Part shown: one piece after another, positions 4,375 through 17,757 of the stretch
Position numbering within the stretch: position 1 is the stretch's first letter
Layout: every line of letters starts with the position of its first letter
Virus record (IMG/VR): IMGVR_UViG_2877285697_000007
DNA length: 17,757 nt
Source of the DNA: a virus
Lineage: Duplodnaviria; Heunggongvirae; Uroviricota; Caudoviricetes
Reading direction: 5' to 3' (one strand)
The notes under the pieces: model-generated
Databases searched by the model: none
What the model was told of the DNA's origin: nothing
Seen by the model: only the letters and a program-made list of their open reading frames with translations
Program-made: the position numbers and the translations under genes

Positions 4375-5800
4375 TAATGCCAGTCAGTTAAGCAACTGAC
4401 TGGCTCTTTTTCGGGGCTGTGGGGTATTTCCAGGGCCTCTCCTTTACCACTCTCGGGAAGGCCCTTCCCCTTCTCGTCGGTAATTTCACAAGTTGTCCCA
4501 TACTTGCAAGATCGCGCATCAGCTCCGGTATACGTCCCGGTGAAGCGCCCTGCAATGTCATCAGCATTCTCATCACCATTCCGCATGATTCTGAGAAACT
4601 CAGTTGATTCGGCCAGTAACCTTTCAGATGTTCCGCCATTTTAATCATCTGATATCTCACCAGATTATAAGCCAGTAAGACACCCCACAGCTCTTGCTCC
4701 ACAAGCTCCGGCTTTTTACTTCTCAGCGTCAGCCTGCTCAGTTGCATCGTCTGTTTTATCTCCCTGTATCCCAGTTCGATTTCCCAGCGATGACTGTACA
4801 GATCCGCCATTTCTCCTCCGGGGAAGCGCATGGCGTCCGTCATCGACGTCAGCAGATGGCAGACTTTTCCTTTGCGCGTCACGGTCAGCAGGCGGGCTGT
4901 CACTTCATTTCCCAGTCCCGGCCACTTTTTTCGTGCCTGCGGGCTGGTTTTCAGCTTCACCAGATGATCGCCTTTACCCAGTTTTCTGAGCTCTTCATAT
5001 TGCGCTCCCTTTCTGAGAGGTATCATCCAGTGGCGGTGTTCTCCCGCCAGGCTCCAGGCATTTAACAGTCCCAGTGAGTAATAACCTTTATCCATTAACG
5101 TCAGAGTGTTATCGCCGGTTTGTTCTATAAGTTGCTCAGCAAGCTCATTTTCGCTGTTCTTCATCGTGCCGAAGGCTGCAGCCGTCAGCAGATGGCTGGT
5201 CAGTTCCATCTGGCAGACCATTTTGACCTGCGGGTAGAGCGCCGGGTTCCCGGCATGTGTCTGGCGGGGGAAGGCTGCATCGTTCTCTGGTGTATCCGGT
5301 GTGCGCCAGAACACACCATCGATGGCCAGCAGGGTCAGGCCGCACCAGTGCGGATGCGGCGTGGCGTTATGCCAGAGCTGCGCTGTTTTCGTGAACACGC
5401 GGCGGACAGCCTCACTTCCCAGGCGCTGGCGGGCCTGAATAACGGCACTGGGGGCAACGAAGGGGCGATTGCCCGGCAGCATGATGTCCAGGCGATTCAC
5501 AATCTGGTGAAGAGGTTCTTTACGCTCAAGCGCCATGCCAACAATACACCAGACCATCATTTCGAGGGGAAGACGGCGCTTGCGTAGCGTTACAGTACCT
5601 GATTCGGCAAGGCAACGAGAGATGAGTTCGGGGTCGAGGTAATCCCCCAGAGAAGTCAGTGGATTACGCAGAGAATCGTAACGGGATACCAGATCAAGAG
5701 TCTGTCCAATGTGCATAAAAAAATCCGGAAACAAGTGAGCGTTTCCGGATTCTTACACAGCCACTGGATCGGTCAACTGATCCTTAACTGATCGGCATTA
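4375..5800 (-). mobile_element. IS4, complete, 1426 bp
   Basis: Terminal imperfect inverted repeats TAATGCCAGTCAGTTAAG (4375-) and TAATGCCGATCAGTTAAG (revcomp, ending 5800), 16 of 18 matching. Encodes an IS4-type transposase. The length equals the known IS4 size. Confidence 0.9.
4388..5716 (-). CDS. insG: IS4 transposase (DDE, IS4 family), about 442 aa
   Basis: Sequence [40 protein letters not shown]... matches recalled IS4 InsG. ATG at 5714-5716; the track's 5734 start is an upstream in-frame extension. Confidence 0.9.
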
Positions 5801-10954: not shown

Positions 10955-11026
10955 TGAAGTGGCACACTGAATTTGGCCACCTGAACAGAGGTGATATGCT
11001 CACCTCAGAACAACACAGGTGCTCCA

Positions 11027-12195
<1,169 letters not shown>

Positions 12196-12289
12196 CCACT
12201 TCACAAATGTGCGCTGGCTATTACGGCTGTAATGGCGATTTATTGTCTTGCTATTGTTCTTATGGATCGCCTTTCTGACTGATTTCACA

Positions 12290-12318
12290 TTGGCGAGGTA
12301 ACGGTAGTTAAGTAGAAT
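12290..12318 (+). promoter_or_regulatory. Candidate sigma-70 promoter of the hok mRNA: -35 TTGGCG, 17-bp spacer, -10 TAGAAT
   Basis: Hexamers read from the sequence. It sits just upstream of GGGTGCTTGAGGCTATCTGCCTCGG (12326-12349), which resembles the 5' leader element of plasmid R1 hok mRNA as I recall it. Confidence 0.45.
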
Positions 12319-12493
12319 GGCTGCGGGTGCTTGAGGCTATCTGCCTCGGGCATGAACACCAACGGCAGATAGAGAAAAGCCCCAGTTAACATTACGCGTC
12401 CTGCAAGACGCTTAACATTAATCTGAGGCCAATTTCATGCTAGACACATGTAGGTTAGCCTCTTACGTGCCGAAAGGCAAGGAGAAGCAGGCT

Positions 12494-12649
12494 ATGAAGC
12501 AGCAAAAGGCGATGTTAATCGCCCTGATCGTCATCTGTTTAACCGTCATAGTGACGGCACTGGTAACGAGGAAAGACCTCTGCGAGGTACGAATCCGAAC
12601 CGGCCAGACGGAGGTCGCTGTCTTCACAGCTTACGAACCTGAGGAGTAA
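12494..12649 (+). CDS. hok: Hok/Gef-family type I toxin, 51 aa
   Basis: MKQQKAMLIALIVICLTVIVTALVTRKDLCEVRIRTGQTEVAVFTAYEPEE: one N-terminal transmembrane helix and the conserved DLCE motif; closest recalled paralogs are HokD/RelF and HokC/Gef. RBS AAGGAGAAG precedes the ATG. An in-frame ATG at 12437 gives a 70-aa mok-like extension. Confidence 0.85.
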   Translation: MKQQKAMLIALIVICLTVIVTALVTRKDLCEVRIRTGQTEVAVFTAYEPEE

Positions 12650-12718
12650 GAGACCCGGCGAGGGAGAAATCCCTCGCCACCTCTGATGTGGCAGGCATCC
12701 TCAACGCACCCGCACTTA

Positions 12719-12749
12719 ACCCGCTTCGGCGGGTTTTTGTTTTTATTTT
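12719..12749 (+). terminator. Intrinsic terminator of the hok transcript
   Basis: Stem ACCCGC / GCGGGT with a TTCG loop, followed by TTTTGTTTTTATTTT. Confidence 0.75.
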
Positions 12750-12865
12750 CAACGCGTTTGAAGTTCTGGACGGTGCCGGAATAGAATCAAAAATACTTAA
12801 GTAGCGCGCAGGGATAAGAGGGATGGTCCCTTAAAGGGGAGAGCTAATTATCCGGAAGGATTCTG

Positions 12866-12949
12866 ATGATGAACATCGAAGAACTGCGTAAAATTTTTTG
12901 TGAAGATGGCCTCTATGCTGTGTGCGTTGAAAATGGAAATCTTGTTTGA
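12866..12949 (+). other. Small ORF (27 codons, MMNIEELRKIFCEDGLYAVCVENGNLV) apparently truncated by IS911
   Basis: Good RBS (AAGGA, 5-nt spacer). Its stop codon TGA is the first three bases of the IS911 copy B terminal repeat, so it is either a gene remnant or a chance ORF. Confidence 0.25.
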
Positions 12950-12954
12950 AGTGG

Positions 12955-14123
<1,169 letters not shown>

Positions 14124-14373
14124 TGGAGCACCTGTGTTGTTCTGAGGTGAGCATATCACCTCTGTTCAGGTGGCCAAATTCAGTGTGCCACTTCATTGAG
14201 AACCAGCACCACAACCTCCTGTATTGGACGTACACCAGTCCTGATGAATATGAGGCTGTCTCGTCAGTGATTCAATACAACTATTGGGTATAGTTTCTCT
14301 GATTTTTTCTGTGGAAATGGGGCTCAACCACTAGTCATTTAATACGCAAAGTCCGATACAAGCTAACCTTCTA

Positions 14374-14457: not shown

Positions 14458-15096
14458 TTAACCACAGATGATATTGAAACGTTCTCCGGAAATCTTGACC
14501 ATAATGTCAGACAGTTCGCTGACGGCATGGGCTTCAGATGATCCCAGAGCGTCAGGCTGAACAGCTATTACCGAAGCTCCACTTGCCAGCCCTGCTTTTA
14601 TACCCGCAGATGCATCCTCAAATACCACGCATTCACCAGGCTCAAGGCCCAAAGCCAAAGCTGCTTTGATGTAACCCTCGGGACTTGGTTTTCCCGTCAT
14701 TACATCTTCTGCACACACCATTACTATGGGTAAGGGGAGATTAGCCGCTTTCATCCTGTTTTCTGCAAGCATTCTGCCTGCAGAAGTGACAAGTGCCCAG
14801 CTATCCGGTGGCAGTTTTGATAAGAGTGCAGCGGCCCCTTTTACTTCAGTAACGCCTTCTGTCGTGTTGATTTCAACCTCTTCGAGTGAGGCCGCGATTT
14901 TATTGGTTTTCTCACCTGCACCAATAAAATGCGTCAGTGTATCAATCGTTTGCCGCCCGTGTGCGTAAGCAATCACAGCCTGAGTATCAAGACCGTATTC
15001 TGCACAAAAATCTCTCCAGACGCTTTCCACTACGGCTGTTGAATCAACCAGCGTACCGTCCATATCGAATAAAAAACCCTTAGCGTTGAATATCAT
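14458..15096 (-). CDS. HAD-superfamily phosphatase (subfamily IA, sugar-phosphatase / beta-phosphoglucomutase-like), about 212 aa
   Basis: Motif I FLFDMDGTLVDS, plus VTSA, TGKPSPEGY and VVFEDASAGIKAG; resembles E. coli YfbT/HxpB-type hexitol phosphatases from memory. Start is placed at the second ATG (15094-15096), which has AAGGA 6 nt upstream; the track start is 15102. Confidence 0.8.
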   Translation of the reverse strand: MIFNAKGFLFDMDGTLVDSTAVVESVWRDFCAEYGLDTQAVIAYAHGRQTIDTLTHFIGAGEKTNKIAASLEEVEINTTEGVTEVKGAAALLSKLPPDSWALVTSAGRMLAENRMKAANLPLPIVMVCAEDVMTGKPSPEGYIKAALALGLEPGECVVFEDASAGIKAGLASGASVIAVQPDALGSSEAHAVSELSDIMVKISGERFNIICG

Positions 15097-15125
15097 TGCC
15101 ATTCCTTAATGGTTGCAGAAGAAAG

Positions 15126-15764
15126 TTAATCAAACCATGTTTTTTCATCACCTTTCGCTACTCTCAGGCTGACAGCAATCTGCTCAGGCACAATTCTTGA
15201 AAGCGACAATTCAGGCAGGTCGTTGACATCAAAAAAATCAGCATCGAGTGACTCATGGCTGATTGACAGGCTGCCACCTACTTCTTCACAGAGAAAAATC
15301 AGCTTGTAAACATGCCAGGGTAAAGGCGGATGGCCGTGAAGATTACGATCCCAAACTCCCAATAGTTTAGTCACTCTGACTTTTAATCCGGTTTCTTCTT
15401 CGACCTCTCGACGCACAGCTTCAGAAGGTGTATCTCCAACATCTGCCCATCCGCCAGGAAGACTCCATAATCCATCTGCAGCCTCTTTCACCATCAGAAT
15501 ACGATTATTACGCAGGATAAACGCACGCACATCTGTTTTGGGCGTCGCGTAACCCGTTTCCGATACATGAAACAAATCATTGCGGCTAATATCAAACTGC
15601 GAACTCAGCAGTCCAGCGGCAATTTCACGCAAGGCTTCATAGCGTTCCTTGTCAAAGACGTCTTTTGAATAGGTCAGGCCTGACTGCGCGAGGGCCTTTA
15701 GTCTCTGGGCAACAAAAATAAGCTTTTCTTGGGTCAACACTTCAGACATGTTTTTCATCTTCAT
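15126..15764 (-). CDS. NUDIX hydrolase with an N-terminal extension, ADP-ribose pyrophosphatase-like, 212 aa
   Basis: Nudix-box-like segment GGWADVGDTPSEAVRREVEEETGL (REVEEETGL fits REUxEExGU) preceded by a ~70-aa N-terminal domain. Start is ambiguous among three Met codons (MKMKNM). Stop is 23 bp upstream of the HAD start, suggesting an operon. Confidence 0.8.
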   Translation of the reverse strand: MKMKNMSEVLTQEKLIFVAQRLKALAQSGLTYSKDVFDKERYEALREIAAGLLSSQFDISRNDLFHVSETGYATPKTDVRAFILRNNRILMVKEAADGLWSLPGGWADVGDTPSEAVRREVEEETGLKVRVTKLLGVWDRNLHGHPPLPWHVYKLIFLCEEVGGSLSISHESLDADFFDVNDLPELSLSRIVPEQIAVSLRVAKGDEKTWFD

Positions 15765-15839
15765 TTATGTATTCAGAGTTCCTGTTAAGGATACTGCTCA
15801 ATTCAATGAAGAATAACAAATGCATCTGGCACCTGCTAT

Positions 15840-15863
15840 GTCCGCTTCTGGCACAAAGCGGAC
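15840..15863. repeat. Palindromic hairpin GTCCGCTT / AAGCGGAC with an 8-nt loop, between the 133-aa gene and the NUDIX gene
   Basis: Same stem sequence as the hairpin at 14374-14397; the two bracket the NUDIX-HAD pair. Confidence 0.5.
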
Positions 15864-15960
15864 AACCACGCCAGATCTACCCTGTGCCATGAAAAATGAG
15901 AATGTCAATTCACTCCTGAACTAATGCTTTTTAATCTAGTAACGTCTAAAATACCTAACA

Positions 15961-16362
15961 TTATCCCTGATAAAATGCCAGTATGCGCTGCATAACTTCA
16001 CTCATCCGGCACTCGCGACAGATTATGTTTAGGCGACTGTCGTAGCGACGTATTTCTCCATCAGGTAACGACCAGATAAGGTCCGGATCAACCACAGCTG
16101 TTTTCTTCACCTTTGCCCTCGATAGTTTTTTGCGGGCGTTTTGCCAGTCCTTACGCGCCTGTTCAGACGGGAATAACCCGTAGCCGGAGTTGTATACATC
16201 GCCACTGGCTACCAGCTCTCTGGCAAGAACGCTCATCAGATATCTAGTCGCACCTGTTTTAGCTTCCAGTTGCCGTAACGTCTCACGACCGCTCTGGCGC
16301 ACGAGTTCCACCACCTGCCCTTTAATTTTTTCCCGCTCTTCTTGTGTAAAAACTTTTGCCAC
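15961..16362 (-). CDS. Hypothetical small basic protein, 133 aa, with a possible helix-turn-helix (TLRQLEAKTGATRYLMSVLAREL)
   Basis: ORF with a GTG start at 16360-16362 preceded by GGGGGA. I recognise no family; the HTH assignment is by eye only. Confidence 0.5.
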   Translation of the reverse strand: MAKVFTQEEREKIKGQVVELVRQSGRETLRQLEAKTGATRYLMSVLARELVASGDVYNSGYGLFPSEQARKDWQNARKKLSRAKVKKTAVVDPDLIWSLPDGEIRRYDSRLNIICRECRMSEVMQRILAFYQG

Positions 16363-16402
16363 AAGTCCCCCTTAAAATTACCTCATGACCTGAAATCAAA
16401 AC

Positions 16403-16927
16403 TTATCCTCTGAAACCAGGCGGAATTTCTGTATCCGGTTCAGAAATATGATTCACACAACGCTGTACAGGTGAACGTCCCAGGCGGATGACCAGTTCGT
16501 CCCATTTTTCGCGGAGTTTTGACGGGCTCATGATGTTTTTTACCCAGAATGGATCCCGCTGTACCCGACCAAACATTTCGCAAATTTGTCTGTGGCTTCT
16601 GCCATCCAGCATCCGCATTGTGCGCACGTCATTGGCCCAGGCTGTCCAGTTAGGCTCTTTTGGTCGCATGATCTCTCCATCGTCGCTGGCAGCCTGTTCG
16701 TAAAGGTTCACGATCCGCCCCCAAATCCACTGCGCACACGCCAAATCCTCCCTGCTACCCCACTGGCGTTTTTTCACACTAAACACAACCGCGTCGGGGT
16801 TCCGGGTTAAAAAATCCTGTTCAGTCGTCTGCGGGTCCGGTTGCGAAGCTTCCGGACGAAAAGTGTTTTTATTCTCTGTAGTAATCTCTGTTGTATGAGG
16901 TGTACTGGCAATAGCGGACACTACCAT
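16403..16927 (-). CDS. DnaT-C-terminal-domain-like protein (prophage / plasmid replication-associated), 174-aa ORF
   Basis: C-terminus ...NHISEPDTEIPPGFRG closely resembles the C-terminus of E. coli primosomal protein DnaT as I recall it (...SEPDSQIPPGFRG). The first ~11 codons overlap the presumed IS600 terminal repeat, so the native 5' end is uncertain. Confidence 0.5.
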   Translation of the reverse strand: MVVSAIASTPHTTEITTENKNTFRPEASQPDPQTTEQDFLTRNPDAVVFSVKKRQWGSREDLACAQWIWGRIVNLYEQAASDDGEIMRPKEPNWTAWANDVRTMRMLDGRSHRQICEMFGRVQRDPFWVKNIMSPSKLREKWDELVIRLGRSPVQRCVNHISEPDTEIPPGFRG

Positions 16928-17757
16928 TTGTTCTTTTTTTAAGCAGCCATCTGATGATATTTTTCCCTGAAGGCTGCCGGGGAGATATTCCCCAGACGAG
17001 AGTGACGACGCTGACGATTGTAGAAAATCTCAATGTATTCCCGTATTACTGAGATGGCTTCATCCCGGTTATTAAAACGATAGTGGCTCAGGCTCTCATT
17101 TTTCAGCGTTCCCCAGAAGCTTTCCATCGGAGCGTTGTCGTAACAGTTACCTTTACGCGACATTGATGTTTTCAGACCAGACTGCTCCTGTATGACCCGG
17201 TAATCGTATGCGCAGTACTGTGAACCTCGATCAGAGTGGTGGATTAGCCCGGCAGGTGGGCGCTGGCTCCTGAGCGCCATAAACAGGGCTTTACCTGTCA
17301 GCTCTTTTGTCATGCGCTCTCCCATGGCGTAGCCGACAATTTCGCACGTATAAACATCTTTGATGCCAGCGAGGTACAACCATCCCTCCTGTGTGGCAAC
17401 ATACGTCAGGTCCGCCACCCAGACCTGATTTGGTGCTGTAGGAGCGAACGTCTGGTTCAGCAGATTTGGCGCAACTGGCAGATTGTGGTTCGGGTTCGTA
17501 GTCGCTCTGAACTTGCGTTTCTGCTTACAGCGTAGCCTTAGCTCCTTACGAAGACGTGCCAGTCGGTCACGACCAACGATGATGCCATTCTCTGCCAGCT
17601 CCGTCTGGAGCCGCCGGGTTCCATATGTTTCGCGAGTGCGGATATGTGCCACCTTAATCTCCAGTTTTAGCCGCTCATCACTTTGTTTTCTGTCTGAGGG
17701 TTCATGCTGTACCCAGTTGTAATAACCGCTCCTGGATACACCAAATACCTGACACAT
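16895..17757 (-). mobile_element. IS3-family element, IS600-like, partial (continues beyond the window end)
   Basis: Terminal sequence TGAGGTGTACTGGCAATAGCGGACAC resembles IS3-family inverted repeats (compare IS3 CAATAGTGGACAC). Encodes an IS600-like OrfB. The inner boundary is approximate. Confidence 0.65.
16939..17757 (-). CDS. IS3-family transposase OrfB (IS600-like), 5' end outside the window
   Basis: MCQVFGVSRSGYYNWVQ... with a DDE/rve core (VWVADLTYV, HHSDRGSQYCA, CYDNAPMESFW). The ORF reaches the window edge; orfA and the frameshift site are not in the window. Confidence 0.85.
   Translation of the reverse strand: MCQVFGVSRSGYYNWVQHEPSDRKQSDERLKLEIKVAHIRTRETYGTRRLQTELAENGIIVGRDRLARLRKELRLRCKQKRKFRATTNPNHNLPVAPNLLNQTFAPTAPNQVWVADLTYVATQEGWLYLAGIKDVYTCEIVGYAMGERMTKELTGKALFMALRSQRPPAGLIHHSDRGSQYCAYDYRVIQEQSGLKTSMSRKGNCYDNAPMESFWGTLKNESLSHYRFNNRDEAISVIREYIEIFYNRQRRHSRLGNISPAAFREKYHQMAA

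Follow-up and report, generated by a model that had tools for sequence, protein, structure and literature searches.

A 174-codon reading frame beside IS600 as the probable 3' remnant of a lambda O-like replication initiator gene in a decayed Qin-site prophage

The 174-aa open reading frame at positions 16403–16927 of the window (the whole 17,757-nt stretch of DNA that was analyzed) is very probably the 3' half of a lambdoid O-like replication initiator gene, natively encoding 321 aa, that ends at a copy of IS600, begins with an ATG supplied by chance, owes its present position to an inversion, and is likely functionless. The finding, a prophage replication gene reduced to a pseudogene remnant at a junction formed by IS600 recombination, is ordinary and of a kind already known. 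The window was 100% identical to its record in the source chromosome, CP026827.1 (4.56 Mb), which allowed both flanks of the IS600 copy to be inspected. The features at the junction are the following.

16896–17757 (−): right-hand part of IS600 (862 nt), cut off by the window end, with orfB at 16939–17757; assigned by identity to an annotated IS600
16896–16922 (−): right terminal inverted repeat of IS600, about 27 bp and imperfect; left and right repeats compared by eye
16925–16927 (−): ATG carried by the IS, 11 nt past the orfB stop, with neither a Shine-Dalgarno sequence nor a promoter-like site upstream
16403–16927 (−): chimeric 174-aa open reading frame with ATG start; from the open reading frame list and the alignment to the AR_0017 protein
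within 16890–16927 (−): junction peptide of the chimera, ...IASTPHTTEITTENK

Positions 16896–17757 were 99.9% identical over 862 nt to a complete 1264-bp element of E. coli VL7S7, which is annotated as "IS3-like element IS600 family transposase," has TGAGG...CCTCA ends, and is flanked on both sides by an ACC 3-bp target duplication; the name IS600 used here rests on this annotated copy. The OrfB protein encoded at 16939–17757 (−) has 272 aa and contains HTH_21 and rve domains. The full IS600 copy in the source chromosome (L003 8769–10032) is 1264 bp long and carries both orfA and orfB. At least 12 complete E. coli genomes were 100% identical to window positions 15800–16896 and diverged exactly at TGAGG/TGAGGTGTACTGG. 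Since the divergence coincides with the beginning of TGAGGTGTACTGG, the right end of IS600 was placed at 16896, with a 1-nt ambiguity because the T at this position is common to IS600 and the native gene.

An earlier note on this DNA had proposed that an IS600-like end overlaps the start of the reading frame, and the boundary at 16896 with the ATG inside the element confirmed this. Its finer placement, with the IS end at about 16895 and the ATG in the terminal repeat, required correction: the ATG does belong to IS600 (positions 30–32 from the tip, between the orfB stop at 16939–16941 and the terminal repeat), but it lies 3 nt interior to the ~27-bp stretch matching the left-end repeat and outside the 26 nt (16896–16921) quoted as the repeat.

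Codons 1–10 of the reading frame come from IS600, codon 11 (His) spans the junction, and codons 12–174 correspond to residues 159–321 of the O-like initiator. The IS600-derived N-terminus thus reads MVVSAIASTPH, with the His codon lying across the junction, and the 163 native residues were 100% identical to residues 159–321 of the O-like protein of E. coli AR_0017. Such identity to live genes means that the event was recent; it shows nothing beyond recency. The exact 174-aa protein is on record from one contig only, CP026827.1, and the junction between the reading frame and IS600 was absent from 5,426 complete E. coli genomes and from species-representative genomes. Neither an exact-protein look-up nor homologue searches found native homologues of ~174 aa with the MVVSAIASTPH N-terminus. 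Agreement in frame between IS600 and the O remnant was at the level expected by chance: one of three frames fits, and just ten codons must remain open, so chance suffices for an in-frame ATG. The suggestion that the IS fortuitously provided a start was upheld. Gene callers report an "intact" 174-aa protein because this chance ATG in the last 32 nt of IS600 adds 11 codons.

The intact gene and the parts of it kept in the window were then compared, and three further features were distinguished.

16403–16895 (−): 3' remnant of the lambda O-like initiator gene, comprising part of the linker, the whole C-terminal domain, and a DnaT-like tail; from PHROGs, the lambda O alignment, and models
16466–16840 (−): folded C-terminal domain, native residues ~180–298; from the structure model
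16870–16895 (no strand): remains of the origin, two of three 12-bp A/T-rich repeats (12-mers at 16870–16893); from comparison of iterons and repeats with L001

In E. coli AR_0017, a complete prophage encodes the intact counterpart, a protein of 321 aa annotated as "phage replication protein O" (WP_021537998.1). Intact O-like homologues of 321–330 aa, with an N-terminus other than that of the chimera, were present in E. coli, E. albertii, Citrobacter, and Salmonella, and the isolated phage HannyBb carries an O-like homologue at 98% identity. Since the intact homologues have 321–330 aa, 174 aa is not the native length. The remnant matched the PHROGs family phrog_391, "replication initiation O-like" (3.4e-69, profile positions 146–298 of 298), and tblastn aligned it to lambda O, in the C-terminal part of that protein, with 36.8% identity (E 1e-20), while Pfam gave no usable match for either the 174-aa reading frame or a near-full-length homologue lacking the first residue.

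In the model of the full-length protein, a winged-helix N-terminal domain (residues ~10–105) is followed by a linker (110–179, pLDDT <50), a helical C-terminal domain (180–298), and a disordered tail, and the break at codon 158/159 of 321 falls inside the predicted disordered linker, whose coding sequence also forms the phage origin. The earlier note had advised counting missing N-terminal residues against intact homologues, and this comparison revealed the loss of native residues 1–158, which are replaced by the 11 IS600-derived residues; the DNA-binding N-terminal domain is thus wholly absent from the window copy. The gene is therefore 5'-truncated, as had been suspected, but the break is in the middle of the gene rather than at its 5' end, where the insertion had been placed.

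In a Foldseek search, the native N-terminal domain was similar to the winged-helix DNA-binding domains found in Rep initiators of plasmids (probability 1.0, rmsd ~2.5 Å, E ~0.01–0.06), and "DnaD-like" proteins from phages of Staphylococcus and Bacillus share up to 47% identity with it. For the C-terminal domain, the model was a confident one (mean pLDDT 85.8, core >90). Foldseek found no fold match for it in the PDB (best E 4.8, TM <0.2), and its model matched predicted structures of phage replication proteins in BFVD. Similarly, the family profile searched against PDB sequences produced no match for the C-terminal domain and only generic winged-helix matches for the N-terminal one. The lambda O-type C-terminal domain, for which there is no Pfam model, is present in about 2,800 cluster representatives at E ≤0.001. 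The existence of natural stand-alone C-domain proteins was considered and rejected, the database cases being contig fragments or split genes: for P0153, the start is internal and the frame stays open to the end of a 675-nt contig, and P0154 directly follows a separate N-domain reading frame at a locus where the genes are fragmented.

The intact gene also contains an origin, composed of five ~23-bp iterons with a GGTCAAAATG-type core (L001 5110–5241) and, after them in the reading direction of the gene, three 12-bp A/T-rich repeats resembling ACAGAGAATACA (L001 5071–5106); the window coordinate equals the L001 coordinate + 11799. The IS600 junction (L001 5096/5097) cuts the A/T-rich repeat nearest the iterons, and none of the five iterons is present in the window copy. 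Because the N-terminal origin-binding domain and all five iterons are gone, both the initiator and the origin have been inactivated.

No sigma-70-like site was found between orfB and the ATG at 16925–16927, and no Shine-Dalgarno sequence before this ATG or a nearby GTG. The outward −35-like hexamer TTGCCA of the IS600 right repeat is located downstream of the ATG, so a hybrid promoter formed there would miss it. The sole route to expression of the chimera would be read-through from IS600's own transcription combined with inefficient re-initiation 11 nt past the orfB stop. Most probably there is no product, or it has no function, and the reading frame itself is most likely a dead pseudogene left by ordinary IS-driven prophage decay. 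What counts against "functionless" is that the retained frame is uninterrupted and holds a complete, confidently modelled domain.

This last observation bears on another reading, in which the chimera, made by IS600 read-through, would be a stable protein, consisting of the lambda O-type C-terminal domain (which recruits the helicase loader) and the DnaT-like tail, and would act as a decoy that is dominant-negative against related superinfecting phages or perturbs host replication restart. The open frame with the whole C-terminal domain (mean pLDDT 85.8, core >90) agrees with it, as does a break that respects the domain boundary by falling in the disordered linker, and the position of the ATG 11 nt past the orfB stop makes re-initiation conceivable. 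The C-terminal part of lambda O is its P-binding part. However, the ATG has neither a Shine-Dalgarno sequence nor a promoter-like site, the outward −35-like hexamer lies on its wrong side, and the stand-alone C-domain proteins in databases are contig fragments or split genes. Moreover, a junction that is known from a single strain and did not occur in 5,426 E. coli genomes shows no sign of selection, and 100% identity to intact genes leaves no time for selection to show. We consider a functional decoy very improbable and retain the dead pseudogene as the preferred reading.

The earlier note had described the gene as DnaT-like. This is correct for the last 21 residues (vqRcVNhiSEPDteIPPGFRG; 16403–16465, −), 14 of which are shared with E. 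coli DnaT at its extreme C-terminus, but not for the gene, which is lambda O-like and has a domain without a fold match in the PDB. The tail matched the DnaT chains 2ru8, 6aep, and 9zbt with E-values of 0.012–0.04 (phmmer), at the C-terminal end of both proteins. The NCBIfam DnaT model NF002770 gave 17.4 bits against a cut-off of 201, with residues 155–174 matching model positions 160–179 only, and DnaT was not among the PDB matches of the family profile. The possibility that the whole domain is DnaT-like was rejected, since its model had no PDB fold match though structures of the DnaT C-terminal domain were in the library. Rather than being a DnaT homologue, the gene encodes an O-like initiator whose tail is of the DnaT type. 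The ending [IV]PxGFRG-COOH was found in 21 of 149 O-like family representatives, and the DnaT-type tail could be a putative host-factor docking motif. That the 174-aa protein, made by read-through from orfAB and re-initiation at the ATG of the IS, titrates a host partner of this tail (a primosome or helicase-loading component), thereby blocking superinfecting phages of this O type, which encode no helicase loader, is marginally less probable even than the decoy, and nothing found supports it.

On its far side, the IS600 copy in the source chromosome borders ydeQ' (5'-truncated, 626 of 915 nt kept), followed by ydeP, safA, and ydeO. The triplets flanking the element are GCG and TAC and thus do not form a 3-bp target duplication, and ydeQ' and 'O are unrelated 5'-truncated genes that both read away from the IS600 copy. 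The lack of a target duplication and the joining of two unrelated genes identify this copy as a product of recombination rather than a primary insertion. The earlier note had spoken of an insertion into the gene. A simple insertion of IS600, with the 5' half of O just past the window on the far side of the element, is what an IS within a gene would normally suggest, and the window, which ends inside the IS, could not by itself exclude it. The source chromosome refutes it, since upstream of the IS one finds not the 5' half of O but the ordinary chromosomal genes ydeQ', ydeP, safA, and ydeO, next to an element without a target duplication. A simple insertion is therefore almost certainly wrong.

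Gene orientation implies an IS600-mediated inversion rather than such an insertion. Past the tail-fibre end of the prophage, the chromosome continues with ydfJ, ydfI, ydfZ, rspR, ydfG, and dcp. In E. coli, ydeQ, dcp, ydfJ, and the O-to-tail operon of the prophage have one common orientation, whereas in CP026827.1 the segment from 'O through dcp is flipped relative to ydeP-ydeQ'. In the simplest account, ydeQ and O would each have contained an IS600 copy, in inverted orientation to each other, and these copies would have recombined homologously. The inverted segment would then extend from the 5' part of ydeQ to dcp, ydfJ, the prophage tail genes, and the 3' part of O. The predicted reciprocal junction (ydeQ 5' part, IS600, O 5' part), searched as an exact pattern of the O 5' part followed by the IS600 left end, was absent from one-genome-per-species and metagenome contigs, which is no refutation since these collections probably do not hold this genome. 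Likewise, none of five guessed 162-aa O 5' fusion proteins was found by exact look-up, an uninformative result because the genome or the gene call is probably not in the collections.

The start of the ydeQ' reading frame is likewise supplied by this IS600 copy, at its other end. The called frame (224 aa, L003 8143–8817) begins inside IS600, 49 nt into the left end, and represents a second chimeric reading frame from one element.

The remaining features of the prophage that are needed here are listed below.

15961–16362 (−): intact DUF977/Ren-like gene, the usual downstream neighbour of the O-like gene; from Pfam and PHROGs
14458–15764 (−): NUDIX and HAD hydrolase cargo genes of the prophage early region; from domains and comparison with AR_0017
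12947–14195 (−): IS911-like element of the IS3 family between hokD and HAD, with a recoverable 3-bp target duplication
12204–12946 (+): rem'-hokD segment, flipped between the inverted IS911-like copies
10955–12203 (+): second, identical IS911-like copy, joining rem' to the truncated L gene

On the minus strand, the window has the order 'O, DUF977, NUDIX, HAD, IS911-like element, hokD-rem' (flipped), IS911-like element, 'L, K, I, J, IS4-family element, lom, tail fibre, tfa. This order matches that of the intact Qin-site prophage of AR_0017, as does the orientation except in the flipped rem'-hokD segment, and the window prophage occupies the same ydfJ (Qin) site. Downstream of the remnant, the DUF977/Ren-like, NUDIX, HAD, and hokD genes follow as in intact prophages, whereas upstream IS600 and ydeQ' stand in place of the cro and cII-like genes. 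The DUF977 neighbour scored 94.8 bits with PF06163 against a gathering score of 22.1 (E 6e-27) and matched phrog_142 (1.9e-44). The earlier note had seen a replication or regulatory remnant in the 174-aa frame and its 133-aa HTH-like neighbour. The former is indeed the remnant of a replication gene, and the latter could be specified as the DUF977/Ren-like gene.

The NUDIX (212 aa, Nudix_N domain) and HAD-family (214 aa) proteins are encoded between DUF977 and hokD, in the position of the nin region. They look like metabolic cargo dispensable for the phage cycle and are intact both here and in AR_0017, while phage HannyBb has other genes at this position. At the opposite end of the prophage, beyond the left end of the window (L006 10702–12915), genes for a Mn-catalase, two DUF892 proteins, and a KGG-repeat protein lie between the tail-fibre assembly gene and ydfJ. 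In AR_0017 this position is taken by the sitABCD iron/manganese transporter genes, so the right-arm cargo differs. An IS4-family transposase gene (4388–5716, −; 442 aa, Nterm_IS4 and DDE_Tnp_1 domains) is situated between J and lom and marks the fourth IS in 17.7 kb.

The two IS911-like copies, 1249 bp each, are identical to each other, inverted, and 94% identical to ISEc52. For the copy between hokD and HAD, the 3-bp duplication (L001 2397–2399) is recoverable once the 743-bp segment is flipped back; the copy between rem' and 'L marks the place where the Q, lysis, head, and proximal tail genes were lost. Compared with the AR_0017 prophage, the early block was 99.9% identical, the tail block ~95%, and the tail-fibre region 85%–91%. 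These unequal values, and the separation of the early and tail blocks by two IS911-like copies, would be expected if the segment 'O-DUF977-NUDIX-HAD were a second mobile element, as the earlier note had supposed, joined to an unrelated lambdoid tail module by recombination between the IS911-like copies. Against this, the genes from 'O to 'L, K, I, and J are collinear with the single intact prophage at ydfJ in AR_0017 (in orientation too, bar the flipped rem'-hokD segment), the tail end adjoins ydfJ exactly as it does there, one IS911-like copy is a simple insertion with a recoverable duplication, and unequal identity of modules is normal lambdoid mosaicism. A separate second element is thus unlikely. 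The remnant and the tail module belong to one IS-riddled prophage and require no second mobile element, with a small chance remaining for two fused prophages.

The finding is of use chiefly to annotators, who should mark the 174-aa "protein" as a fragment of a pseudogene whose start derives from an IS; neither "DnaT-like" nor "hypothetical protein" is a suitable label. The right end of IS600 (with an ATG and a TTG, and two frames open to the tip) and its left end can create false starts wherever they abut a truncated gene. The locus documents an IS600-associated inversion breakpoint together with an IS911-associated deletion and flip, which jointly explain the structure of the decayed Qin-site prophage. 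The intact O family combines a DnaD-like N-domain, a lambda O-like C-domain without a relative of solved structure, and a DnaT-type tail. The phages that carry this family lack a P or DnaC-type loader gene, a hint that the host helicase may be recruited in another way.

In lambda, the origin lies inside the O gene as iterons followed by an A/T-rich stretch. The intact O-like gene is similar to lambda O in having its origin in mid-gene, with TCAAAAYG-core iterons and then an A/T-rich stretch, and in its location after cro and cII-like genes and before a Ren-like gene. It differs in that its N-terminal domain is of the DnaD_N/HTH_36 winged-helix type, unlike Pfam Phage_rep_O, in the additional DnaT-like C-terminal tail, and in the absence of a P or DnaC-type loader gene after O in both AR_0017 and phage HannyBb. 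The window copy departs further from lambda O, since its N-terminal domain and iterons are entirely missing. Likeness to DnaT (primosomal protein i) is confined to the tail; the three-helix-bundle fold of the DnaT C-terminal domain was not matched by the model of the remnant's domain, which hit no DnaT chain.

The IS600 copy is similar to annotated IS600 in its length of 1264 bp, TG...CA ends, orfA/orfB organization, rve (DDE) domain, and 99.9% identity. Unlike a primary insertion, it connects two unrelated genes and lacks a target duplication. Many IS elements are packed into this region (IS600, two IS911-like copies, an IS4-family element, and IS1), as in Shigella-type genomes with IS-mediated rearrangement. 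Qin of E. coli K-12 occupies the same ydfJ integration site, and Qin and Rac are decayed prophages, as is the one described here; they have the genes rem, hokD, ydfA/ydfB, and dicB and that of a DUF968 protein in common with the intact relative in AR_0017. K-12 Qin shows a different pattern of decay, whereas the prophage in the window half-retains its replication gene and keeps the tail genes J, I, and K.
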